Shown here piece after piece: positions 25,155 to 47,160 of a stretch of 64,000 nt of DNA. Origin of the DNA: an uncultured Chlorobiaceae bacterium (GTDB lineage: Bacteria; Bacteroidota; Ignavibacteria; UBA10030; SZUA-254); NCBI GenBank assembly GCA_964523395.1, contig CAZFXS010000008.1, positions 74,693 through 138,692 on the forward strand, given 5' to 3'. Made by a program: the position numbers and the translations under genes. The notes beneath the pieces were generated by a model. The model had not been told where the DNA came from. It ran no database searches and saw nothing but the letters and a program-made list of their open reading frames with translations. How positions within the stretch are numbered: position 1 is the first letter of the stretch; the number at the start of each line of letters is the position of its first letter.

Positions 25155-25267
25155 GGATATGAATATACGCAAATGATTCTTTTGCGGCAACGATGACATT
25201 ACATTGCATTTTTCTTCAAAAGAATCTACATTAAAATGAACTACCACAAGCATATTCTTCAGACCTT

Positions 25268-26779
25268 ATGAACCAACCCCTGACCATCGGTGAGTTACGA
25301 AAAAGCGGTTATCATGTTCACACCGTTAAAGATGAAATCCGGAATAACCTCATCGCGAAAATCAACCGAAAGGAAACGCTCTTTCCCGGCATCATTGGAT
25401 TCGGGAAAACAGTTATCCCTGCAATCATCAACGCGGTACTCGCCAAGCATGATATCATGTTATTGGGATTACGCGGGCAGGCAAAATCACGAATCGTCCG
25501 CCAGCTTCCTTCATTGCTGGATGAATATATTCCGATCATCAAAGGATGTGAGATTAATGATAACCCGTATCATCCCGTTTGCAAACGATGCACCGATTTA
25601 GTAAAAGAGAATGGAGACAATACTGAGATTGAGTGGCTTCACCGCGATGCAAGACTTGGTGAAAAATTAGCAACGCCTGACGTCACCATTGCCGATTTAA
25701 TCGGCGACATTGACCCGATCAAAGCCGCATCGCAACGGTTACACTATTCTCATGAAGGCGCGATTCACTTCGGCATCATTCCTCGTACAAACCGCGGCAT
25801 CTTCGCCATCAACGAACTTCCCGATCTTCAGCCTCGCATACAAGTAGGACTCTTTAATATCATGCAGGAAAAAGACATTCAGATCAGGGGATTCAATGTA
25901 CGGATCCCTCTCGATATCATGATTGTCTTCACCGCGAACCCCGAAGATTATACCAATCGCGGTAGCATTATCACTCCGCTCAAGGACCGGATAGATTCAC
26001 AAATCTTCACCCATTATCCGAAGACCATTGAAGACGCCATTCACATCACACAGCAGGAAGCGCATATTGAACGTGATGGAAAGGACATCATCATCCCCCA
26101 TTACTTCAAAGAGATTATAGAGCAGATTGCGTTCGAAGCGCGCAAGAGCGAGTTTGTTGATCAGAAATCGGGCGTCAGTGCGCGCATGACGATTGCCGCG
26201 CTGGAAAATCTCGTAAGCAACGCCGAACGCCGCGCGATTTTATTAGGCGACAGGCAAATTGTCCCCCGTGTTTGCGATCTGGCTTCCGTGCTTCCCGGAA
26301 TGACCGGTAAAATAGAGCTTGTATTTGAAGGAGAACAGGAAGGTCCGCTAAAAGTAGGAAAAGCATTGATCGGAAAAGCTGTGCGCGATGTCTTCAAAAA
26401 ATATTTTCCAGACCCGTTGCAGCGACGCCCTGTACGCGGACAATCACAGGAACAGCGCCAGCAACCCGAAGACACGGAGTATGGCAAAATTATTTCGTGG
26501 TTCGAATCGGGAAACAAAATTGAAATTTCTGATGATATGACCATCGATGAGTATATTCATGAGTTACAGAAAGTAAAGAACCTCTCCGATATTACAACAC
26601 GTCACATGAAAATCGCTTCCAACAATAAATATGAGCTTGCCTCTGCGATGGAATTTGTCCTGGACGGGCTGCACCAATTTTCAAAAATCGCAAAGGAGGA
26701 AGCCGAGCACCGCGTGGAATATAAAGACCTTGTGGGAAGTATTTTTACAGGAAGAGGGAAAGGGGAGGAAGATGATTGA
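25268..26779 (+). CDS. AAA+ ATPase, Mg-chelatase ChlI/MoxR-like
   Basis: ChlI-like N-terminal block FPGIIG...VLL.GLRGQAKS (degenerate Walker A) and a Walker B/sensor region (GIFAINELPDL...DIMIVFTANPED). It is paired with a downstream VWA protein. Confidence 0.65.
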   Translation: MNQPLTIGELRKSGYHVHTVKDEIRNNLIAKINRKETLFPGIIGFGKTVIPAIINAVLAKHDIMLLGLRGQAKSRIVRQLPSLLDEYIPIIKGCEINDNPYHPVCKRCTDLVKENGDNTEIEWLHRDARLGEKLATPDVTIADLIGDIDPIKAASQRLHYSHEGAIHFGIIPRTNRGIFAINELPDLQPRIQVGLFNIMQEKDIQIRGFNVRIPLDIMIVFTANPEDYTNRGSIITPLKDRIDSQIFTHYPKTIEDAIHITQQEAHIERDGKDIIIPHYFKEIIEQIAFEARKSEFVDQKSGVSARMTIAALENLVSNAERRAILLGDRQIVPRVCDLASVLPGMTGKIELVFEGEQEGPLKVGKALIGKAVRDVFKKYFPDPLQRRPVRGQSQEQRQQPEDTEYGKIISWFESGNKIEISDDMTIDEYIHELQKVKNLSDITTRHMKIASNNKYELASAMEFVLDGLHQFSKIAKEEAEHRVEYKDLVGSIFTGRGKGEEDD

Positions 26780-28010: not shown

Positions 28011-29528
28011 TTAATCTTTCCAGACATAAACACCCCCATTCTGATTTATTCTTTTTAGCCCAACTAACAATCTTTTATTTCCCTTGCTCACATCTACTAC
28101 ATTTGAAAAACCATGAGGCAAACCCATACTGACATCAACCCATTTACATTGCTCACACTTTGAACTGTATACTCCTAAACTCGATGATAGAATTGATTCA
28201 GAAGAATTGAATTGATTAAATTCCAAACCATTGTAACCATCGGCGCTGTCATTTACGGTAATGCGTGTCCAGGAAACACCGTTGTTTTTTGAGACGTAAA
28301 AACCTTGAAAGTCGACACTAGCATATACAACATTCGAATCTGACGGATCAACCTGAACTAATGTAACCACAGATTCGGTTTGACCTAATCCTGTAACACT
28401 CCAATTTGTCCCTCCATCTGTACTCTTAAGTAACAACCCTATCCCCGGAGTTCCGACATAGATAATATTTGGATTCCATGGATTGATAGCTATGCTTACA
28501 ACGCCCTCTCTTAAATAATTATTATTTGACGCAAGGTCGATCCATGTCGTTCCGGCATCAGTACTTTTGTATAAAGACCCTCCAAAAAAACCTCCGGTTC
28601 CGGCAAAAAGGATTGACGGGTTGTTTGGATCAATAGCCAAGCTTTGTAACCGAGTTTCAGGATCGATAAAGATATTACTCGCACTTTCAAACCATGATAC
28701 TCCGCCATCAATACTTTTATACAACGAAAAGGGAATCGTGTACATTGTGTCAGGATGTATAGGATTTAAAATAATATCAAGATAACTCCCGCCGATAAGC
28801 ATGGTATCCCATGAAACTCCCTGGTCAACAGACCTAAAAAGTTTACCGGGAATCCCTTCACTAAAATTATATTGAGAACCGACGAATATTACATTTGAAT
28901 CTGATGGATGTGTCTTAATTGAGACTATGGTTTCTTCTGTCAAACCAACCGACTCCCACCGACCCGTCGAAAACGTGCCGTTAATTTCAGTTCTTATCCA
29001 ATACCCTTTCCCGGGAATTATGGAATCCGTTATTTGATATCCTTTGTTGGGAGTATACGAATACAATACTGTGTGTTCTAGCATGTCAGGCAAAGGAATA
29101 ATACTATCGGTAGATATACTTTGCAAAAATGAGGAAACCATATTCCAGCCATTACCAACAGAGTAGGCTTCAACAAGTGGTTGTGTACCATTAATGAGGA
29201 AGGAATCATTGGAGGGAAACTTTATCCAGTAGCTCTTACCATACTGGAGTGTATCACTTTTCTTGTAGCCCCCATCAAACTCCCATGCCTGAGAAATTGC
29301 TGTTGGAAAAAGTGTGGTTACGCGCGAATCAGGGACTAGAAGCGGAATGGAAACAATATTCCATCCCGAATCAATCAATACATACATCGAGTCGAGAACT
29401 GTGCCTGATGATAAAACACGATTCTCAAGATCTCCACCAACGGCTGACATTACTTCTCTATGGGCAAAGGAACCATTAAACAGAAAAATCAAAGCTGCGG
29501 ACAAGCCGAATGAAAAATAAGGTTTCAT
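28011..29528 (-). CDS. BNR/Asp-box repeat secreted protein (glycosyl-hydrolase/sortilin-like beta-propeller)
   Basis: Signal peptide and multiple S-x-D-x-G-x-T/S-W repeats (SVDQGVSW, SIDGGVSW, STDAGTTW, STDGGTNW, SKNNGVSW). No T9SS tail was detected. Confidence 0.7.
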   Translation of the reverse strand: MKPYFSFGLSAALIFLFNGSFAHREVMSAVGGDLENRVLSSGTVLDSMYVLIDSGWNIVSIPLLVPDSRVTTLFPTAISQAWEFDGGYKKSDTLQYGKSYWIKFPSNDSFLINGTQPLVEAYSVGNGWNMVSSFLQSISTDSIIPLPDMLEHTVLYSYTPNKGYQITDSIIPGKGYWIRTEINGTFSTGRWESVGLTEETIVSIKTHPSDSNVIFVGSQYNFSEGIPGKLFRSVDQGVSWDTMLIGGSYLDIILNPIHPDTMYTIPFSLYKSIDGGVSWFESASNIFIDPETRLQSLAIDPNNPSILFAGTGGFFGGSLYKSTDAGTTWIDLASNNNYLREGVVSIAINPWNPNIIYVGTPGIGLLLKSTDGGTNWSVTGLGQTESVVTLVQVDPSDSNVVYASVDFQGFYVSKNNGVSWTRITVNDSADGYNGLEFNQFNSSESILSSSLGVYSSKCEQCKWVDVSMGLPHGFSNVVDVSKGNKRLLVGLKRINQNGGVYVWKD

Positions 29529-29589: not shown

Positions 29590-29710
29590 CCCCACGATTT
29601 ATCGTGGGGTACAAGCAATCCCCAATTCCCGCCCAGTGGCTTCAGCCACTTACGCGGGGGTTAAAACCTATTAACCTACTTTCCCGCAACCCCCAAACTA
29701 AAGTTTGGGG
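29590..29710. repeat. cluster of three perfect GC-clamped hairpins (CCCCACGA-TTTA-TCGTGGGG; CCCGC..GTGGC-TTCA-GCCAC..GCGGG; CCCCAAAC-TAAA-GTTTGGGG)
   Basis: Read directly from the sequence. The same architecture recurs at 50453-50510 and 51351-51395. Confidence 0.6.
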
Positions 29711-29752
29711 TTACGTCCTATACTTCCACTAAAACTGCAAGATTAAATAGAG

Positions 29753-29807
29753 TCTCCATAATCCTATCATTCTTCCGTTTGAATTTCACCTATTTTTTCA
29801 GCATTTT
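29753..29807 (+). promoter_or_regulatory. conserved upstream motif TCTCCAT..CCGTTTGAATTTCACCTATTTTTTCAGCATTTT (copy A)
   Basis: About 31 of 34 nt identical to 37327-37367, and partly similar to 42981-43010. All copies lie upstream of plus-strand operons. Confidence 0.45.
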
Positions 29808-29830
29808 AGGGCTGGCAATATCAAATACTT

Positions 29831-30583
29831 ATGCTTCTTATAATTCCGGCAATAGAAATCAAAGGCGGCAAGTGTGTGCAGATGGTGCAGGGCATCGAGG
29901 GATTTGTCTATTCCGACGATCCCATCGAGATGGCGAAACTCTGGCGCAAGGAAAACGCGAAGTCGCTCCATGTCACCGACGTTGACGGCGCCATCGAAGG
30001 CCGCCTTGTCAACTTCGATGTCATCGAACGGATGGTGAAGACCGTCGATATTCCGGTTGAACTGGGCGGCGGGTTGCGGACATTCGAAGAAATAAAAAGA
30101 GCATTCGACGCAGGCATCTACCGCGTTGTCATCAGCACAATGGTCATCGAAAACCCCGACGAAGCCAAACGCATCATCGAAACATACGGTCCGAGCAAAG
30201 TCATTCTCGGCATCGACGCGAAAAACGGTATTGTAAAGACAAAAGGGTGGGCGGCAGATTCAGGTCTTACGGCAATCAGTGTCGCGCTTAACGCCAAGGC
30301 TCTTGGTTTTAAACGCGTCGCGTATACCGACATCCTCCTCTCCGGCATGATGCGCGGCGTCAACATGGACGCGCTTCATACGCTCGCCGAAAAGACCGGC
30401 ATGCGCATTACCGCTTCGGGCGGCATTTCAAGTCTTGATGATCTTTTGAAATTACAGGAGATGGAATCACTTGGCGTGGACTCGGTCGTCATCGGCAGGG
30501 CATTGTATGAAAATAAATTCGCCTGCCAGGAGTTGTGGAGATTGTGCGAGGCCGGAAATTATCCGTACACCGCAAAGATTTAG
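29831..30583 (+). CDS. hisA: HisA-family (beta/alpha)8 isomerase (ProFAR isomerase-like)
   Basis: N-terminus IIPAIEIKGGKCVQMVQG...VYSDDPIEMAKLW...LHVTDVDGA and a C-terminal GVDSVVIGRALYE motif, both typical of HisA. No other his genes are nearby. Confidence 0.6.
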   Translation: MLLIIPAIEIKGGKCVQMVQGIEGFVYSDDPIEMAKLWRKENAKSLHVTDVDGAIEGRLVNFDVIERMVKTVDIPVELGGGLRTFEEIKRAFDAGIYRVVISTMVIENPDEAKRIIETYGPSKVILGIDAKNGIVKTKGWAADSGLTAISVALNAKALGFKRVAYTDILLSGMMRGVNMDALHTLAEKTGMRITASGGISSLDDLLKLQEMESLGVDSVVIGRALYENKFACQELWRLCEAGNYPYTAKI

Positions 30584-30586
30584 AAC

Positions 30587-31525
30587 ATGACTATCACCGT
30601 CATAGGCCACCTCTGTCTCGACGTCATCCACCACGCTGACGGATCGGAAACGCAAAGTTACGGCGGAATATTTTTCTCCGTCGCGGCACTGGCAAACCTG
30701 CTCGGCCCCGGTGACACCATCCATCCCGTCTTTGGCGTCGGCAAAGATGAGTATCAAGCGTTCATTGAACGTCTCGAACCGTACCCGAACATTGACACTT
30801 CTGGTATTTACAAATTTAACGGTCCCACAAATCAGGTATCCCTCCACTATAAAGACAAGCGAGAGCGGATCGAGTGCTCCAAACATATCTCGGAACCAAT
30901 TCCCCTCAAAAAAATCCGGCCGTATCTCGACGCGGATATGATTCTAATTAACATGATTTCCGGTTTTGACATCACACTCGAAACGCTTGATGAAATTCGG
31001 ATGGAAGTCCGCGAACAGCACACTCCCGTTTATATTGACATTCATAGCTTAACGCTCGGAATCAAAGACGATTTCACGCGCTTTCACCGCCCGGTAGAGC
31101 TATGGCGGCGGTGGCTGTTCATGCTTCACGGCGCGCAGATGAACGAAGAAGAGGCCGCGATTCTCGCGACGGAAAAACTCGACGAAGCAAATCTTGCCAA
31201 ACATATCCTCGCTCTTAATACCAAAACACTCATCGTAACCCGCGGTGAACGCGGTTGCACGGCATACGTCGATGACAAGAAACATATTCATAGAACGGAC
31301 ATCGACGGCATCAATGCCGGCGGAAGCGAAGACCCGACCGGTTGCGGCGACGTATTCGCGGCGGCATACTCAGCGCATTACCTTATGACAAAGGATGTTG
31401 AGGCATCTGCCAACTTTGCCAACAAAGTCGCCGCGCAGAAATCCACAATGAACGGCTCCAACGATATCGACAACCTTTCCACCTTCCGCCTGTCCAAATC
31501 ATCATTGAAAGAAAAAACAGCATGA
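30587..31525 (+). CDS. PfkB-family carbohydrate/nucleoside kinase
   Basis: Ribokinase-like fold with the conserved anion-hole motif (GCGDVFAAAY) and an N-terminal GG dipeptide region. Confidence 0.8.
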   Translation: MTITVIGHLCLDVIHHADGSETQSYGGIFFSVAALANLLGPGDTIHPVFGVGKDEYQAFIERLEPYPNIDTSGIYKFNGPTNQVSLHYKDKRERIECSKHISEPIPLKKIRPYLDADMILINMISGFDITLETLDEIRMEVREQHTPVYIDIHSLTLGIKDDFTRFHRPVELWRRWLFMLHGAQMNEEEAAILATEKLDEANLAKHILALNTKTLIVTRGERGCTAYVDDKKHIHRTDIDGINAGGSEDPTGCGDVFAAAYSAHYLMTKDVEASANFANKVAAQKSTMNGSNDIDNLSTFRLSKSSLKEKTA

Positions 31526-32259
31526 ACATCGCCCTCATCGGATACGGCAAGATGGGAAAAGAAATTGAACGGATTGCGAAAGAACGCCGCATCGCTGTAA
31601 AGAAAATATTTGAGGAGAAGGATAACCTGAACGGACGGGGTATTACGAAAGAGTCAATGAAAGGAATTGACGTTTGCATCGAGTTCTCATCGCCTGCGGC
31701 ATGCGTCGGCAACATCAAAGCTGTCGCGGAATGCGGTGTTAATATCGTCGTCGGAACCACCGGATGGTACGAGCGGCTAGATGATGTGAAGAGACTCATT
31801 AAATCAAAAAAGACCGGGTTGCTTTACTCGCCGAATTTTTCCTTAGGCATGAATGTTTTTGCTAAACTTGTGTCTGATGCCGCGCAGATGATGGATAAAC
31901 TCGATATGTACGACGCCGCGTTACACGAAATCCATCACAAAGGAAAAGCCGACAGTCCCAGCGGCACGGCCCTCATGCTCGGACAAACAATGCTTCAGCA
32001 GATGAAGCGTAAGAAAGAGATCCTGCAGGAAACATCCCACAAAACAATCAAGCCGGATCAATTGCACATTACTTCCGCACGCGTCGGAAATGTTGTCGGC
32101 AAACATCAGGTGATGTTCGATTCCGAGGCCGACACCATCGAACTGACTCACAACGCCAAGAACCGCACCGGCTTCGCTCTCGGCGCGCTCGTTGCGGCTG
32201 AGTGGCTCAAAGGCAAAAAAGGTGTTTATACAATGAACGATGTCATGGCATCACTATGA
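31522..32259 (+). CDS. dapB: 4-hydroxy-tetrahydrodipicolinate reductase
   Basis: N-terminal NAD(P)-binding motif (IALIGYGKMGKEI) and the E.HHKGK.DSPSGTA catalytic block. Confidence 0.9.
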   Translation: MNIALIGYGKMGKEIERIAKERRIAVKKIFEEKDNLNGRGITKESMKGIDVCIEFSSPAACVGNIKAVAECGVNIVVGTTGWYERLDDVKRLIKSKKTGLLYSPNFSLGMNVFAKLVSDAAQMMDKLDMYDAALHEIHHKGKADSPSGTALMLGQTMLQQMKRKKEILQETSHKTIKPDQLHITSARVGNVVGKHQVMFDSEADTIELTHNAKNRTGFALGALVAAEWLKGKKGVYTMNDVMASL

Positions 32260-32879
32260 GCATGATGTTTGTTCTTCTGATTCCATGGTTTTTAAGTACT
32301 TCATGTGAACAAGAATTCACATTACTTGGGTTTATATTGGGAGAACCGTCAACGTTTTGGATTCTTGAAGATGTGGGCGGTGAGTGTAATTATTCCCGCC
32401 TGATCCAAATTTCTTTAAGTAAGGATAGAAAGATTAATGAAGGTGCAAGTTTCTTTGCTCAATACAAGCAGACTAAAAAGTTTCAAGAATCTATTTCGGA
32501 GCTAAACCATGTTAATGTTGATACGTTAATTTCTAAAAATGGGAGGCTAACAGTTCCTTCCAAATCATGGTTATTATCACCACCACCTCTTAACGATTCA
32601 TTATATGGTGAATATTCATATAATGCTAATGCGAATTTTACCCCCGCTCAATGGAATACCGAGAAAGCGGTCAAGGGGATAATGCAACCTAATTTTGAAA
32701 ATTGTACTAGTCAATTACTTTACATATATCCCAACGGCTTGTATGTTAATTATGATTTTGATAAGGGATATTATCTTAGAGATAGAGGTTTGATTATCAT
32801 ATTTACCAAAAATCAACATCGTGGTTCTGGATTAGATTCAATGTATGGATTTCTTATTTATCAGGTTAAGGATGTTTAG
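32256..32879 (+). CDS. hypothetical secreted/lipoprotein (AT-rich orphan inserted in dap operon)
   Basis: Signal-peptide-like N-terminus (MSMMFVLLIPWFLSTSC). Composition is markedly more AT-rich than the flanking dap genes. No recognisable family hallmarks. Confidence 0.45.
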   Translation: MSMMFVLLIPWFLSTSCEQEFTLLGFILGEPSTFWILEDVGGECNYSRLIQISLSKDRKINEGASFFAQYKQTKKFQESISELNHVNVDTLISKNGRLTVPSKSWLLSPPPLNDSLYGEYSYNANANFTPAQWNTEKAVKGIMQPNFENCTSQLLYIYPNGLYVNYDFDKGYYLRDRGLIIIFTKNQHRGSGLDSMYGFLIYQVKDV

Positions 32880-32881
32880 GT

Positions 32882-33778
32882 ATGAAGAACAATAAACTGA
32901 TTTTTAAAGGAACAGGAACCGCACTCGTAACACCGTTTACTGACAGCGGGTCAATCGATGAGCGCGCATTGCGCAGACTTGTTGATTTCCAGATAAAAAA
33001 CGGCGTTGAAGCGTTGCTTCCCACAGGCACCACAGGTGAAAGCGTAACACTTTCGGACGACGAACAATATCATGTCGTTTCAATTGTGGCTGAACAAACC
33101 CGCAACCGTATACCGGTCATTGCCGGTGCGGGAAGTAATTCCACCGAAAAAGCTATTTCCCTTTCAAAGAAAATGCTTGCCGCGGGTGCAGATGGCATAC
33201 TTTCCGTCGGGCCCTACTATAATAAGCCGACGCAGGAAGGGTATTTCCGCCATTACGAAGCAATAGCTTCCTCTATCGATGCTCCTATAATAGTGTACAA
33301 CGTCCCGGGACGAACCGCCTCCAACATCGAACCCGAAACCACATTGCGTATCGCCGAAGAACTTCCCTCCGTTGCCGGCATCAAGGAAGCTTCCGCTAAC
33401 TTTACACAGATCATGGAAATATTGAAACATCGCCCGGCTGGATTTGGTGTTTGGTCGGGGGATGATTCTATCACACTCCCATTGGTTGCACTTGGCGCGG
33501 ACGGAGTTGTCTCCGTTGTTTCAAACGAAACTCCGAAAATGTTTTCCGAACTGGTACGTCTTGCTTTGCGCGGAAAGTTTGCCGAAGCAAATAAACTCCA
33601 GTACAAATTGCTGGCGCTGATGAATTTCAACTTTGTCGAATCAAACCCGATCCCTGTCAAAGCCGCACTCGCGGCGATGGGCATGATTAAAGAGCAGTAC
33701 CGCCTGCCGCTTGTTCCTCTCAGTCAGAAGCATCACCCGAAGCTGAAAGCAATACTGAAAGAGCTGGGGCTGATATAA
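32882..33778 (+). CDS. dapA: 4-hydroxy-tetrahydrodipicolinate synthase
   Basis: DHDPS blocks: GTTGE, the Schiff-base Lys region (AGIKEAS) and YNVPGRT. Confidence 0.9.
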
Positions 33779-34608
33779 TGATACTTGAACAAATCATCAA
33801 CCGGTTGTTTGAGTTCTCCGCGGAAACCGTTGACATCGAAGATGCGCGCCTCGCTGTTCAGCAGTTAAAAGATTTGCTGAACAAAGGTGAAGTCCGCGCC
33901 GCAGAGTATCACGCAGGAACATGGCGGGTCAACACATGGGTGAAAAAAGGAATCCTTCTGGCATTCCGCGTCGGGAAAATTGTGGAATCCACTGACAGCA
34001 TCTTTTCATTTTTCGATAAAGATACGATTCCTCTTAAAAGACTATCGGTAAATGACCGCGTCCGCATCGTGCCGGGCGGCAGTACAATCCGCGACGGCGC
34101 GTATGTGGCGCCGGGCGTTGTCATGATGCCGCCGGCGTATGTCAACATCGGCGCATACATTGACGAGAATACAATGATCGACTCTCATGCGCTCGTGGGT
34201 TCGTGCGCGCAAATCGGGAAGCGTGTTCACCTGAGCGCGGCGGCGCAAATCGGCGGCGTGCTTGAACCGATTGGCTCGATGCCTGTTATAATAGAGGATG
34301 ATGTGTTCATGGGCGGCAATACCGGTATTTATGAAGGAACGATCGTGAAACGCCGCGCCGTTATCGGCGCGGGAGTGATATTGACCGGTTCGACACCTGT
34401 GTATGATTTGGTGAACAAAAAAATCTACAAGAAATCCCCCGATGCACCGCTTGTTATTCCCGCAGGCGCCGTGGTTATTCCCGGCAACCGGCATATCCAT
34501 GACCCGTTCGCAAAGGAACATCACCTCTCGATTTACGCGCCGATCATTATTAAATACCGTGACGAGAAAACCGATGCCGCAACCGTACTCGAAGAAGGAT
34601 TGCGATGA
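33778..34608 (+). CDS. dapD: 2,3,4,5-tetrahydropyridine-2,6-dicarboxylate N-acyltransferase (DapD-like)
   Basis: N-terminal helical domain followed by left-handed beta-helix hexapeptide repeats. It lies in the dapB-dapA context. Whether it is a succinyl- or acetyl-transferase was not resolved. Confidence 0.7.
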
Positions 34609-35546
34609 GCCAGCCGGTTGTACGTGTGCTTATCACGGGCAGTAACGGACTGCTCGGGCAAAAGCTCACCGAATTATTTTCCCACATCAGTTCATTCAAC
34701 TTGATGCTCTGCTCGCGGCAGGATCAGTCTGTGTTTCCCGAGGAAACTCTCACCTACCGGAAGCTCGATATCACCAGCAGAACCGACGTCAAGAAAGTTA
34801 TTGAAGAATTCGAGCCGGATGTGATTGTCAATTCCGCCGCTATCACCAATGTGGACGCGTGCGAAACGGAACGTGAGGTGGCATGGCGGATTAACGTCAG
34901 TGGTGTAGAAAATATTGTGCAGGCGGCAAAGCTGACCGGCTCCAAACTGATTCATGTTTCCACCGATTATGTGTTTGACGGGAAAACCGGACCGTACTCC
35001 GAAGTTGACCGCCCGAACCCGATGAGTTATTACGGCAGGACAAAGCTTGCGAGCGAGAATGTTATCACCACCAGCGGTATTCCTCACGCCATCGTAAGAA
35101 CGATGGTGCTGTATGGGATTGGCTATGGAGTAAAACTCAATTTCGCGCTCTGGCTGTTACGCGAGTTAAGCCAGGAAAATCCCGTGCGTGTTGTTGACGA
35201 CCAGGTCTGTAATCCCACACTTGCCGATGACCTTGCCTACGCGATATTAAAGATTATCGAGTTGAATCGCACAGGACTTTACCACGTCTCCGGCTCCGAC
35301 CTGATGAGTCGCTACGAGTTCGCAATGATGCTCGCGCGCGCGTTCCGCTACAACCGCCGGCTGATAACTCCGGTAAAAACCGCAACACTAAAACAACCCG
35401 CCGTGCGACCGTTGAGGTCAGGGTTTGTCACATTAAAAGCGCAGGTTGATCTTGGCATAAAACCTTCCGGTGTTGAGCAGGGGTTGACGATTTTTAAGAA
35501 TCAGGTGAGTACTTATAGTAAGGAAGAGAATAGTGTTGATCAATAA
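34605..35546 (+). CDS. NAD(P)-dependent sugar-nucleotide reductase, dTDP-4-dehydrorhamnose reductase (RmlD)-like
   Basis: Rossmann motif [11 protein letters not shown], a catalytic YGRTK (YxxxK), and an RmlD-like length. The sugar specificity is not established. Confidence 0.6.
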
Positions 35547-35698
35547 ATAGTTTTTTTTAACACCTTCTCTCCGGCGCTGGCTCACTTTAGGTGAGATTGG
35601 CTCAGTTAGATTTATCCGACAATTACTAGAAAGAGCATGATAAAAGCCCCGATGCCAACGCCCACTATCATTGGAATAATAATTTGTAAAACCATTTC

Positions 35699-36328
35699 AT
35701 GAAGCCCAAAATGCAAATTCTTATTTATGTTGTTGCGAGTCTTAGTGCAATCGTCCTGGCTGTTGGTGGATACGTTTTCGTTTTTCATAAGTCTGCCTCG
35801 ATCTGGATATTCTTCGGAGGAATAGTCTTGGGATTTCTTGCGTTAGCACTTGTCTTGCAAGAAAAAGTTTGGAAAGATAATGAAGCATCTTTGAAAAAGG
35901 AGTATGCTCCGTATGTTAGTTTTCGGGACATAGAATTGATTTCATTTGAAGCTGGTAAGATTCCAACAGCCAAATTGACCTTTAAGAATATTTCTACGGA
36001 CACTCCGGCGTTTCGCTCCTACGTTGAAACTCATATGTCGTTCAGAGCTACTAAGGCTTTCACCGGATTTATGCCACCCAAGTCCACAGAACAACCAACT
36101 AAAGTAGATGTAATGCCCCAAAACGAAATATTTGGATGGGCTACCGGTCCAGTTCTTACGCCTGAACACATACAGGCAGTTAAGGATACCTCGGGATGGC
36201 TCTTTGTTTATGGGTTTATCGCTTACCAAGACCCACTCGGAATAGACCACAAGACCGAATACTGCGTTAGATATGAGCCCGATGTGGGCTCTTTCGGTTA
36301 CTGTGAATCGAATAACACGGCGAAATGA
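35699..36328 (+). CDS. hypothetical membrane protein
   Basis: Two N-terminal TM helices followed by a soluble domain. Composition is AT-rich. No recognisable family hallmarks. Confidence 0.45.
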   Translation: MKPKMQILIYVVASLSAIVLAVGGYVFVFHKSASIWIFFGGIVLGFLALALVLQEKVWKDNEASLKKEYAPYVSFRDIELISFEAGKIPTAKLTFKNISTDTPAFRSYVETHMSFRATKAFTGFMPPKSTEQPTKVDVMPQNEIFGWATGPVLTPEHIQAVKDTSGWLFVYGFIAYQDPLGIDHKTEYCVRYEPDVGSFGYCESNNTAK

Positions 36329-36389
36329 ACATCGCTTATTTTGATACGGAGAGGGAAGCGAGATTTTCAAAACAACTTCCCCTGACCAG

Positions 36390-37253
36390 GTGAAACCAAA
36401 CTACGCCGTCCTCGCTAACATCAAGGTGAACCAAATGAGCCTCTTGAACCTCTCCAGAACCCCTTATCCACATTCCTGTAATTCTTTCTCCCACTCTATC
36501 GCGAAAATATCTTGCCTGATATTTCTGACACTCACCCTTTGCAATATTGCAGATAGTCAAGTTGACAGCTCTGGAACCGCTCTTTTCATATTGCTCAATA
36601 AGGGCAGACTGACAATTGCCACTGAAAGAGGTGTCGGAAGCGGGGGCAAAGTAACTGCAATGAAGGAATCGAAGATCAACGAGGTTAACGGAACCTACAT
36701 TACTGCAACTGGATACTCCACCTTTAGTGATGTTTTGGATACTATTCGCACCGATACCACCCTCACGCTTAAAGAACAGGTTGCCAAGTTTGAGGCTCTT
36801 ATCACGCCAAGACTTACCGCTTATTGCGAAAGGAGCATCAAGAAAGACGGGATTAAATATTTTGACAACGATAGGAACGGAGACCCGCTTTTCATTTTTT
36901 TCGCTAGACGAGCCAAAAGCCAAATAGTTTATATAGCTCTGACTTTTAGAATGGTGGCCGAAGATGGGGGCTACGTTCTTAAGCCTTTCTTTGATAGCTG
37001 TCTTGACTCTATGTGTGCTTCTCAAACGTTTTACACCATCCAACCCTCCACCGCCCTTCAGCAATTCCCAGACTCTACGCTCGAAAGACTTTGGAGGAAC
37101 GAACCCGCCATGCTCTGTTGTTCTTTCATACGCAAGGCTATTGATATGGAACCTAAAAAATACCTTGCCCCAATAGACGTGCTCTTAATTACCCCCGAAA
37201 GCGCACGGTGGTATCTTGATGTGAAAGATTGCAAGAATATAAAATACGAGTAA
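36390..37253 (+). CDS. hypothetical secreted protein
   Basis: Internal signal-peptide-like segment (ISCLIFLTLTLC). Composition is AT-rich. No recognisable family hallmarks. The start is uncertain (36390 or 36435). Confidence 0.4.
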   Translation: MKPNYAVLANIKVNQMSLLNLSRTPYPHSCNSFSHSIAKISCLIFLTLTLCNIADSQVDSSGTALFILLNKGRLTIATERGVGSGGKVTAMKESKINEVNGTYITATGYSTFSDVLDTIRTDTTLTLKEQVAKFEALITPRLTAYCERSIKKDGIKYFDNDRNGDPLFIFFARRAKSQIVYIALTFRMVAEDGGYVLKPFFDSCLDSMCASQTFYTIQPSTALQQFPDSTLERLWRNEPAMLCCSFIRKAIDMEPKKYLAPIDVLLITPESARWYLDVKDCKNIKYE

Positions 37254-37326
37254 GGCCACTCTTATTGGGACGAGTTCTCCCTCATTTCAAACTGAACCAA
37301 TCTTAATCATAATGAGCCAGTACCCT

Positions 37327-37367
37327 CTCTCCATTTCGTTTGAATTTCACCTGTTTTTTCACCATTT
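37327..37367 (+). promoter_or_regulatory. conserved upstream motif TCTCCATTTCGTTTGAATTTCACCTGTTTTTTCACCATTTT (copy B)
   Basis: See copy A at 29753-29807. This copy lies 60 bp upstream of the serS start. Confidence 0.45.
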
Positions 37368-37427
37368 TGGTTTTGCTTTAACATACATTTCTGCTGTAAT
37401 TCGCTCAAACAAAGGAAAAACATATTC

Positions 37428-38690
37428 ATGCTAGATATAAAATTCATACGCGAACACCCCGATCTCGTCAGGGAAGGGATTCGCAACAAAGGGGAACACG
37501 ACACCATCGATGAACTGCTCTCGCTTGATGCGAAGCGGCGCGAGATCATACAAAAAGTCGAGGTGCTTAAAAGCCGCCGCAACACAGTCTCGGAGGAAGT
37601 CGGCAAACTGAAGCGCGAAAAGAAAGACGCTTCCGCTGTCATCGCCGAAATGGAAACCGTTAAGAACGACATCAAGGCGTTCGATGATGAACTCGCGGCC
37701 GTCGATGCCGACCTGAACAAACGTATGCTGACGGTGCCGAACATCCCGCACCCGTCGGTCCCTGTCGGTAAAAATCCCAACGACAACCAGGCAATCGCCA
37801 CATGGGGCGAGCTTCCCGTCATCGATTTCAAACCGAAACCGCACTGGGAGCTTGTCGATAAGCACGACATCATCGACTTCGAGCGCGGCGTCAAAATTAC
37901 CGGCGCGGGATTTCCCGTGTACAAAGGCGCGGGCGCGAAACTCCAGCGCGCGCTCATCAATTTCTTTCTGGATGAAGCCGCGACAAAAGGCTATAAGGAA
38001 ATCCAGCCGCCGCTCATGGTCAATACCGCCAGCGCGACCGGCACAGGACAGCTGCCCGACAAAGAAGACCTGATGTATGTCGCGACAAAAGATGAATTAT
38101 ATCTTGTCCCGACTGCCGAAGTCCCCGTTACGAATATCCACCGCGATGAAATTCTGAACGAAGATGATCTTCCCACAAAGTACTGCGCCTACACTCCATG
38201 CTTCCGTCGTGAGGCAGGATCGTACGGCAAAGATGTCCGTGGATTGAACCGTCTGCATCAGTTTGATAAAGTCGAGCTGGTGAAGTTCGTCCATCCCGGG
38301 GTTTCGTACAACGAACTCGAATCGCTTCGGCAGGACGCGGAACAGCTCCTGCAAAAACTCGGCCTCCGTTACCGTGTGCTGTTGATGTGCACCGGCGATA
38401 TGGGCTTCACGCAGACAAAGAAATATGATTTGGAAGTATGGAGCATCGGCCAGGAACGCTGGCTGGAAGTTTCTTCCATCAGCAACTTTGAGGCGTTCCA
38501 GGCGCGCAGGACAAACATCCGCTTCCGCCCGCGCGGCGGAGGGAAACCTGAATTTGTACATACGCTCAACGGCTCCGGCCTCGCGCTCCCCCGTGTCGTT
38601 GCCGCGCTGATTGAGCAATACCAGACACCGGAAGGCAAAATCATCATCCCGAAAGTCCTGCAAAAATATACCGGCTTCGAGATCATCTAA
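37428..38690 (+). CDS. serS: serine--tRNA ligase
   Basis: N-terminal coiled-coil arm ([12 protein letters not shown]...), followed by class II synthetase motifs (FRRE...[12 protein letters not shown]; GSGLALPR). Confidence 0.95.
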
Positions 38691-38704
38691 CTGCTAAAGT
38701 TTTA

Positions 38705-38773
38705 TTGCCACAAAGACACGAAGGCACAAAGAAAACTTTGTGATCCTTAGTGTCTTTGTGACTTAGTGGCAAC
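38705..38773. repeat. nested palindromic element (TTGCCAC-AAAGACAC..[CACAAAG-aaaa-CTTTGTG]..GTGTCTTTGTG..GTGGCAA) 3' of serS
   Basis: Inverted repeats read directly from the sequence. It may be a terminator or attenuator structure. Confidence 0.5.
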
Positions 38774-38857
38774 ATACTACCTACCCATGCTTTTCTCTCA
38801 ACTCTTTTGTATCTTAAATCATTCAAACAGAACAACAGAAAAGCATTTTCCAGACGA

Positions 38858-40618: not shown

Positions 40619-40634
40619 AAAAGCTAAGATAATT

Positions 40635-40664
40635 CAAAAGTCAAAAATAAAAAGTAAAAAGGGA
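40635..40664. repeat. AT-rich repeat (inverted copy) TCAAAAGTCAAAAATAAAAAGTAAAAAGGG upstream of four-helix-bundle ORF
   Basis: Reverse-complement-related to the direct copies at 41051-41087 and 47125-47160. Confidence 0.5.
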
Positions 40665-40670
40665 GGAGTT

Positions 40671-41033
40671 ATGTATCAAGATATCAAGGAGCGGACATTT
40701 TCGTTTGCTGTAGTAATTACGAGATTGGTAAAAACACTGTATAGAAACAGAGAGGATGATGTTTTGACAAAACAGGTATTTCGGTCAGGAACATCAATCG
40801 GCGCAAACGTGGAAGAGGCAGCTGCTTCGTATAGTAGAGATGAATATATTTACAAAATGAACATTGCGCTTAAGGAAGCCAGGGAAACTCACTATTGGCT
40901 TAGAATACTTAGAGAGTCCGAAATTGTTGAAGCAAAGCGTATACAGAATATCATTGATGAAAGTGAAGAAATCAAAAAAGTACTTGGAGCAATTGTAAGT
41001 AAGTTAAGAAACAAATCAAAGGTCAAAAATTAA
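40671..41033 (+). CDS. four-helix-bundle protein (family recalled as TIGR02436, the 23S rRNA intervening-sequence-type protein)
   Basis: About 120 aa with family blocks FRSGTSIGANVEEA and EARETHYWL. A GGAGG RBS precedes it. Composition is AT-rich. Confidence 0.8.
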   Translation: MYQDIKERTFSFAVVITRLVKTLYRNREDDVLTKQVFRSGTSIGANVEEAAASYSRDEYIYKMNIALKEARETHYWLRILRESEIVEAKRIQNIIDESEEIKKVLGAIVSKLRNKSKVKN

Positions 41034-41050
41034 CCATTATCATTAAATCC

Positions 41051-41087
41051 ATTTTTTACTTTTGACTTTTAACTTTTTACTTAATCC
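41051..41087. repeat. AT-rich repeat ATTTTTTACTTTTGACTTTTAACTTTTTACTTAATCC (direct copy 1)
   Basis: Nearly identical to the copy at 47125-47160, and an inverted relative of 40635-40664. Confidence 0.55.
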
Positions 41088-42919: not shown

Positions 42920-43037
42920 TTTACTACAGTAATGAACAGCCATCATATTTTAAATACATTTGTGGGAACTTTAATATTTCTTCTTCCGTTGAAACTTTGT
43001 ATTTTGTCGCCAACATCCACTTGGAAGGAATTTTGAT

Positions 43038-44545: not shown

Positions 44546-44655
44546 CAGCGGATTAAGGGATAATATCGGATAAAGCAAATGACAACAGATGACAGCGAAT
44601 GAAGAGAAATAAAAAGATTTGTTGATCCATTCGTAACCCTTTTATCCGCTGTAAT
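44546..44655. repeat. palindromic repeat region built on TGACAGCGGAT units (direct copies 44546-44562, 44583-44600; inverted copy 44636-44655)
   Basis: TGACAGCGGATTAAGGG versus the reverse complement of CCCTTTTATCCGCTGT. A further inverted copy, ATCCGTTGTCA, lies at 45096-45106 on the far side of the GxxExxY gene. Confidence 0.5.
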
Positions 44656-45064
44656 CTTTTAATCCACTGTTACGTTGCTGCCACTTTTTAGGAGGAAGGA
44701 TTCGTTTATACTGCAACTTACCTTGCCCAAAATTGACTAGGAGCCCCACCCTTAGATTAGTGAGCTGGAGATATTTAAGAACCTGAAATAAATGAAGATC
44801 GGTAAGTTCTTTGACAGATTTAATTTCCAGTATCAAACAATTATCAATTTCGAAATCGAAAAAGTTTTTCCCGATCTGCACATTTTTATACTTCATTGAA
44901 AAGTGTTTTTGCGGTGTTGCGGTAAGTTGTTGATTTGAAAACTCGAGTTGAAGTGCTCTTTGGTAATACCTTTCATGAAACCCCGGTCCAATCTCCCTGT
45001 GAACCTCCATGCAGATCCCGATTACTTTATAAGTGAGATCAGTAATATCCTTCCCTAACTCCAT
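44642..45064 (-). CDS. GxxExxY protein (PD-(D/E)XK-like small protein family)
   Basis: N-terminal KVIGICMEVHREIGPGFHERYYQ matches the GxxExxY signature, and a C-terminal LLVNFGQGKLQYKRI block is present. Confidence 0.75.
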   Translation of the reverse strand: MELGKDITDLTYKVIGICMEVHREIGPGFHERYYQRALQLEFSNQQLTATPQKHFSMKYKNVQIGKNFFDFEIDNCLILEIKSVKELTDLHLFQVLKYLQLTNLRVGLLVNFGQGKLQYKRILPPKKWQQRNSGLKDYSG

Positions 45065-47124: not shown

Positions 47125-47160
47125 AATCTTTTTACTTTTGACTTTTTAATTTTTACTTGA
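47125..47160. repeat. AT-rich repeat AATCTTTTTACTTTTGACTTTTTAATTTTTACTTGA (direct copy 2)
   Basis: About 29 of 31 nt identical to 41051-41087. It lies in the etfB-etfA spacer immediately before the etfA ATG. Confidence 0.55.

Follow-up and report, generated by a model that had tools for sequence, protein, structure and literature searches.

The locus studied here raises the question of why two non-homologous genes, hisA and serS, carry nearly the same short sequence upstream of their start codons, and of what this sequence does for the genes that follow it. The window, by which we mean the whole 64-kb stretch of DNA that was analysed, holds both genes in the same orientation. The analysis covered the extent of the shared sequence, its distribution among related Ignavibacteria, its likeness to the promoters of the same genomes and the other explanations that could be given for it.

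Two copies of a short core before hisA and serS

The first-pass annotation had described a motif shared by the regions upstream of hisA, serS and, in part, a DUF4139 gene. The sequences that it quoted are present where it placed them, and its estimate of about 31 identical positions in 34 for the two main copies was borne out, with 3 mismatches in 34 nt between 29774-29807 and 37335-37368 (31/34 identical). Both main copies do lie in the sense orientation upstream of hisA and serS. When the two copies are merged into a degenerate 34-mer, this matches the 64-kb window at 29774-29807 and 37335-37368 only, two matches were obtained in 0 of 100 dinucleotide-preserving shuffles of the window, and the same pair was recovered independently, as family D2, by a repeat search of the window. 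The spacing to the start codons has to be corrected by one nucleotide in each case, being 23 nt, not 22, from 29807 to hisA and 59 nt, not 60, from 37368 to serS. The features of the two copies and of the genes around them are as follows.

29777-29810, plus strand: copy A, core GTTTGAATTTCACCTATTTTTTCAGCATTTTAGG, upstream of hisA; very probably the ancestral element
29777-29788, plus strand: block GTTTGAATTTCA of copy A, including the -33-like TTG (29779-29781)
29802-29809, plus strand: -7-like box CATTTTAG of copy A (TTG, then N20, then the box)
29831-30583, plus strand: hisA, ATG at 29831 (TIGR00007 above cut-off)
29831-35546, plus strand: hisA-pfkB-dapB-(ORF 32202-32879)-dapA-dapD-rmlD, from Pfam and NCBIfam; genes predicted to be served by copy A
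35560-37315, no strand assigned: strain-specific insert of ~1.75 kb between rmlD and copy B, with two ORFs
37338-37371, plus strand: copy B, core GTTTGAATTTCACCTGTTTTTTCACCATTTTGGT, upstream of serS; very probably a lineage-specific duplicate of copy A
37340-37342, plus strand: TTG of copy B
37363-37370, plus strand: -7-like box CATTTTGG of copy B
37428-38690, plus strand: serS, ATG at 37428 (Pfam); final gene of the ancestral operon, predicted to be served by copy B in the window

The identities of DapB, DHDPS, DapD and SerS were confirmed with Pfam. The homology between copies A and B amounts to a core of ~34-36 nt and ends sharply at the core borders. Local alignments of the flanks (60 nt on the upstream side, 70 nt on the downstream side), made in the window and in the closely related locus L082, scored no better than those of shuffled sequences (p 0.4-0.8). 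Since the flanks align no better than shuffles, both the 'TCTCCAT' match and a 52-nt ungapped extension of the alignment are compositional, and the upstream 'TCTCCAT(N0-14)' part, which had been counted as belonging to the motif, does not rise above chance in these alignments (p 0.4-0.8). A MAFFT alignment hinted that copy B might also carry the 5'UTR and start codon of hisA; this was rejected by the shuffle tests.

The partial copy reported before ORF 43038 belongs to a different element, which is given here as a further feature.

42964-42995, plus strand: GGGAAC-N17-CGTTGAAAC, putative ECF-sigma-type promoter before the DUF4139 gene; covers the supposed partial copy

A profile of the motif does not detect the site at 42981-43008 even at E<=100. 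The likeness of this third site to copy A consists of TTCTTCCGTT, half of which falls within flank bases that are variable in the true copies. The element itself is made up of GGGAAC (42964-42969), N17 and CGTTGAAAC (42987-42995), and GGGAAC-N17-yGTwsAAC occurs at the same place in three relatives, the individual sites (GGGAAC-N17-CGTT/CGTA/TGTT) lying at ~16340-16375 in L083, ~15450-15485 in L085 and ~10575-10610 in L086. The ECF consensus is GGAAC-N17-GTT (10.1101/172254). Among promoters of the form GGAAC-N17-CGT/GTT, the third site fits as GGGAAC-N17-CGTT, whereas the motifs before hisA and serS have no GGAAC at the required distance. The conservation of an ECF-sigma-type promoter at this position suggests that the DUF4139-family gene may belong to a regulon of the envelope-stress type.

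Conservation and ancestry of the two copies

By its SerS homologues the window belongs to the Ignavibacteria (Ignavibacteriales), and nine related loci were compared with it. The SerS of L082 is 99% identical to that of the window, and seven more distant lineages (L083/L084, L085, L086, L087/L088, L089/L090, L091 and L092) have a SerS that is 78-86% identical. The gene string hisA-pfkB-dapB-dapA-dapD-rmlD-serS is common to all the related loci retrieved, and the same gene order is found in P0118, a tenth relative compared as a gene map only. The gap between rmlD and serS measures 8-38 nt in six of the seven distant lineages (L083, L085, L086, L089, L091 and L092) and 213 nt in L087/88; in L082 the spacer between the two genes measures 122 nt.

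The motif was found once per lineage, always before hisA, in 7/7 distant lineages (nhmmer E values from 1e-8 to 6e-6), with 19-45 nt between its end and the ATG of hisA, and it forms the only block conserved between hisA and the gene upstream of it. Before serS, none of the same seven lineages (L083-L092) has the motif, and the second copy is confined to the window and L082 among the relatives compared. The orthologous upstream regions, to which the first-pass annotation had pointed as a place to look, thus hold the motif before hisA in all the relatives examined. Over ~250 kb of sequence from Ignavibacteria, hisA is the only gene preceded by the motif, apart from serS in one lineage; this distribution lends no support to a generic, lineage-specific promoter architecture, which had been one of the explanations offered earlier.

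Across the seven distant lineages the consensus of the motif is GTTTGAATTTCA-N7-TTT-N3-CAnnTT(A/G)G, and the majority consensus of the profile alignment is GTTTGAATTTCAnnnAAATTTTnnGCAnTTTnG. No variation is found in the columns GTTTGAATTT.A, in a single T within the T-run of the spacer, or in the CA..TT that comes after it. The block GTTTGAATTTCA is unchanged in 10 of the 11 instances, the remaining one (L091) showing a single C-to-G change, and the TTG, which stands there as GTTTG, is identical in all 11. Within the box that follows, the A at position 2 and the TT at positions 5-6 are invariant and positions 3-4 are variable, and position 1 is C in every instance.

The relationship between the two copies can be read from the bases in which they differ from the rest. 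Over the core, copy B is identical to copy A at 30/34 positions and to the hisA copies of the relatives at 20-26/34. In the spacer, CACCT(A/G)TTTTTTCA, copy B agrees with copy A at 18/20 positions and with the relatives at 8-15/20, and the copy of every relative is nearer to copy A than to copy B. Because copy B shares the derived spacer of copy A, and because copy A is the nearer of the two to all relatives, copy A is very probably ancestral and copy B would have been duplicated from it on the branch that leads to the species of the window. The motif had earlier been taken as shared between unrelated promoter regions; copy B appears instead to be a recent duplicate of copy A within what was ancestrally one operon.

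The 68 bases of the two cores are the same in the window and L082 (0 substitutions), as against 38/283 differences (~13%) in the non-coding flanks, and the probability that 68 core bases should remain unchanged at the flank rate is ~6e-5. As far as sequence comparison goes, both cores, spacer included, are under purifying selection. The proposal that the motif is a shared cis-regulatory site is supported by these unchanged cores and by the presence of the element before hisA in every relative examined.

In the strain of the window, the region between rmlD and serS has undergone a further change. The 1.75-kb insert that lies there is missing from L082 and from every other relative compared, and its two ORFs (35699-36328 and 36390-37253) match nothing in Pfam and NCBIfam. 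As borders the insert has an imperfectly repeated sequence of 12-13 nt in direct orientation (ACACCTTCTCTCC and TACCCTCTCTCC), of which L082 has a single copy; this could be a target-site duplication, or could reflect a deletion between the repeats in L082. As the insert is located between rmlD and copy B, it separates serS physically from the other genes of the operon in this strain, and the expression of serS there probably depends on copy B.

For genomes as close as those of the window and L082 (SerS 99%), much small-scale indel turnover is seen in the surrounding sequence. The window and L082 differ in a BNR/sortilin-repeat gene (28011-29528, minus strand) between the VWA gene and hisA, in ~620 nt with an unassigned ORF (32260-32881) between dapB and dapA, and in a PD-(D/E)XK gene (44642-45064, minus strand) after the DUF4139 gene. 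The spacer between serS and the ABC genes (38691-38806) shows no relation at all between the two genomes, each of which has its own, different hairpin there. Upstream of copy A, a stretch of ~170 nt (29590-29760; 1200-1370 in L082) is ~87% conserved between the window and L082 and missing in the distant relatives. It contains the hairpins CCCCACGATTTATCGTGGGG and CCCCAAAC-TAAA-GTTTGGGG, has no match in Rfam, and could be the terminator of the upstream VWA gene plus another element.

Two ABC exporter genes downstream of serS are separated by a gene for a four-helix-bundle '23S rRNA intervening sequence protein' (ATG 40672, stop 41033; TIGR02436, E 6e-28), flanked by inverted AT-rich repeats of TTTTTAC-like heptads (window 40631-41085). 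The same cassette is present in L082 (10090-10545), in L087/88 (L087 16547-17040) and in L092 (~13077), and is missing in L083, L085 and L086, where the ABC genes abut. A solo repeat of the cassette (2 mismatches) is found at 47129-47158 of the window, just before the start of ETF-alpha, and contains the -7-like box TACTTTTG. The unit looks like a small mobile cassette, the arms of which may carry promoter-like boxes.

Promoter-like layout and competing explanations

In the window, L087, L089 and L091, hisA and the gene upstream of it are transcribed away from each other, and with such a neighbour the promoter of the operon must lie in the spacer before hisA. The motif in this spacer has the layout TTG-N20-CAyyTT(A/G)G, and both copies of the window end in TTAG and are described by TTG-N20-CAnnTTAG. 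Promoters of Bacteroides and Flavobacterium combine a -33 TTG (TTTG) with a -7 TAnnTTTG, the latter located at -12 to -5 in Flavobacterium (PMC9723704), and the RpoD motif of Chlorobaculum tepidum is TTG-N17-23-TA[ATC][ATC][AT]T (10.1101/172254). Of the 6 positions that each consensus specifies, the box CAnnTT(A/G)G agrees with TAnnTTTG at 4 and with TA[ATC][ATC][AT]T at 5, and its invariant and variable positions fall as they do in the TAnnTTTG template.

Other promoters of the same genomes provide a closer comparison. Footprints were obtained for the promoters of ETF (TTG-N20-TATATTTG, invariant in five lineages), of FBPase (TTG-N20-TACATTTT) and of the AAA-ATPase gene at 25268 (TTG-N20-TACATTA(G/A)), all of which can be written TTG-N20-TAnnTT(T/A)(G/T/A). 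The N20 spacing of the motif equals that of these promoters, which otherwise share the layout only, and the box begins with C in the motif as against T in all three. At the AAA-ATPase/VWA gene pair the footprint reads TTGCAT-N17-TACATTA(G/A) and is located at 25190-25230 in the window, ~2060-2100 in L083 and ~2050-2090 in L085; the footprint of this pair indicates that the TTAG ending of the -7 box is in use elsewhere in these genomes. Counted over the whole window, TTG-N18-21-TAnnTTTn reaches a density between genes that is five times its density within coding sequence. The match in layout between the motif and other promoters of the same genomes is established at the level of sequence.

A scan of the window for sigma-70 promoters of the TTGACA/TATAAT type gave nothing above shuffle expectation and nothing at the motif. 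Sites for sigma-54 (no GG-N10-GC), for a sigma-32-like factor and for ECF factors (no GGAAC), as well as an ArgR box (no ATTCA partner half-site), were tried on the sequences and rejected.

The loose likeness to Bacteroidota -33/-7 promoters that the first-pass annotation had seen holds for the kind of promoter and fails for the boxes assigned to it. TTTG and TAttTTTT were wrongly paired, as only ~10 nt separate them, and the proper box at N20 is CATTTTAG in copy A and CATTTTGG in copy B. We consider it fairly likely that the motif functions as a promoter, and we infer that RNA polymerase initiates transcription at both copies. If the box stands at -12 to -5 as in flavobacteria, transcription of hisA would start at ~29814, leaving a 5'UTR of ~17 nt, and that of serS at ~37375.

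The C at box position 1, the ~12 near-invariant bases and the A/T tract make an overlapping regulator site, or a different sigma factor, possible. The core might chiefly be an operator, bound by a DNA-binding regulator dedicated to it (one responsive to amino acids, say) and overlapping the -33 region and the spacer of the hisA promoter, which we hold to be unlikely; under such an arrangement the duplication would have preserved this control for serS once the gene had become a transcription unit of its own, an outcome that we likewise doubt. The ~12 near-invariant bases of GTTTGAATTTCA around the -33 TTG go beyond the known needs of sigma contact, the A/T tract of the spacer is kept across lineages, and the spacer is identical at 18/20 positions between copies A and B with 0 changes between the window and L082. 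In addition, TGAATTTCA is a 4+1+4 palindrome and forms, together with TGCATTTTA, an imperfect direct repeat 20 nt apart. These signs of a bound protein have to be set against the finding that none of the lineages has a regulator gene linked to the locus, and that the motif stands at one operon per genome in the sequence searched, which for the genome of the window comprised 64 kb, so that no regulon is visible. Moreover, the spacer of the ETF promoter is similarly well conserved across the same lineages, and since that promoter is nearly as conserved as the motif, strong conservation of a whole promoter is not exceptional in these genomes. An operator would also overlap the promoter without excluding it. 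If it were real, an operator-promoter module would have been copied intact and co-regulation kept after the gene had left the operon; an undescribed ignavibacterial regulator binding GTTTGAATTTCA and the A/T-rich spacer, and coupling histidine and lysine synthesis to seryl-tRNA charging, can be imagined on these grounds, with little probability of being correct. Recognition of the motif by an alternative sigma factor would explain the C at box position 1 and the extended -33 block, and in its favour the box reads CAnnTTAG, not TAnnTTTG, in all instances and the motif is absent from other promoters in the window. We nevertheless find this improbable, given that its spacing and conserved positions agree with the footprints of primary-sigma promoters from these genomes, and that the motif has neither the GGAAC/CGT signature of ECF factors, unlike the DUF4139 promoter, nor the GG-N10-GC of sigma-54. 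Housekeeping biosynthesis and tRNA-charging genes are not known as typical targets of alternative sigma factors.

In other phyla, leader RNAs classically act on genes for histidine and lysine synthesis and for seryl-tRNA synthetase, and the motif could accordingly belong to a structured leader (attenuator, riboswitch or T-box) that is transcribed ahead of the amino-acid genes and serS and controls them. A short structured leader had indeed been suggested in the first-pass annotation. This reading is now largely refuted and must be counted as very improbable: Rfam gives 0 matches at the gathering threshold and, at E<=10, unrelated ones only, such as eukaryotic snoRNAs, and the folds of copies A and B and of two orthologues are no more stable than those of shuffled sequences (z-scores from -0.8 to +1.5). 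Nothing is conserved downstream of the motif, where the 19-56 nt to the start codon are too short for known leaders, and no separate conserved promoter lies upstream of it. Least credible of all is a chance similarity, or an interspersed repeat of the REP/MITE kind, with no link to expression. The window has two copies only, and the genome does contain other short AT-rich repeats; no shuffle yields the pair, however, the copies have no terminal inverted repeats, and copy A has an orthologue in each of the relatives, always in the same place ahead of hisA. It is this orthologous conservation of copy A that refutes a chance or generic-repeat origin. In a scan of 185,579 species genomes with TTTGAATTTCACCTNTTTTT, a collection without a lineage having this exact spacer, 59 single matches were found in unrelated taxa, none of them extending past the pattern; they are chance matches. 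A metagenome scan with TTTGAATTTCACCTNTTTTTTCA gave 22 matches, none of which extends, 19 being one AT-rich, mostly marine sequence and 3 unrelated singletons.

Proposed history and relation to known systems

On balance we favour, with some reserve, the reading that copy A is the ancestral -33/-7-type promoter of the operon and that copy B is a lineage-specific duplicate giving serS a promoter of its own. According to this proposal, copy A would be the ancestral promoter region of the hisA-pfkB-dapB-dapA-dapD-rmlD-serS operon in this group of Ignavibacteria, with a -33 TTG within GTTTGAATTTCA and, exactly 20 nt on, a -7-type CAnnTT(A/G)G, in the layout of the primary sigma factor of Bacteroidota and Chlorobi. 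On the branch to the species of the window, copy A would have been duplicated into the spacer between rmlD and serS. The resulting copy B would provide a separate promoter for serS, which had until then been the terminal cistron. Later, the 1.75-kb insert would have landed between rmlD and copy B in the strain of the window.

With the primary-sigma promoters of Bacteroidota and Chlorobi, the motif shares a TTG followed, 20 nt on, by an 8-mer in which positions 2, 5 and 6 are invariant and positions 3-4 variable, and a location 19-56 nt before the start codon. It differs from them in having C, not T, at position 1 of the box and A/G, not T, at position 7, and in the near invariance of ~12 bases around the -33 element. 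The same classes of gene (serS, lys, his) are controlled by T-box leaders and amino-acid riboswitches, but the motif is far too short for one of these, matches nothing relevant in Rfam, forms no stable fold and is followed by no conserved sequence. Unlike REP/MITE repeats, it is present in two copies in 64 kb and has a fixed orthologous position before hisA.

The pair can also be compared with putative mobile promoters, which were surveyed by Matus-Garcia, Nijveen & van Passel 2012 (PMC3488235) at a threshold of >50 nt with 80% identity or better; families of two members were the commonest (68%). As in those cases, homologous upstream sequence stands before non-homologous genes, hisA and serS, with unrelated flanks, and forms a family of two members that is neither an IS element nor a riboswitch. 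In contrast to them, the homology covers ~34 nt at 91%, the 52-nt ungapped alignment having 79% identity and an extension that is not significant, and donor and recipient come from one ancestral operon. As a case of promoter propagation the pair would be a small one, below the 50-nt threshold of that survey, and would stand out only by the origin of donor and recipient. Since both lie in what was a single operon, the effect is to break that operon up and not to rewire a foreign or silent gene.

Taken together, the pair is most likely ordinary promoter reuse and no new kind of element. What the favoured history would offer is a phylogenetically dated operon split, in which the promoter core of an operon was copied before its last gene and a foreign insert was then tolerated between the two. 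The motif also provides comparative evidence that Ignavibacteria use the -33/-7 layout of Bacteroidota and Chlorobi at N20 spacing, and knowledge of this layout would be useful for the annotation and engineering of the Ignavibacteria, a group rich in uncultured members.
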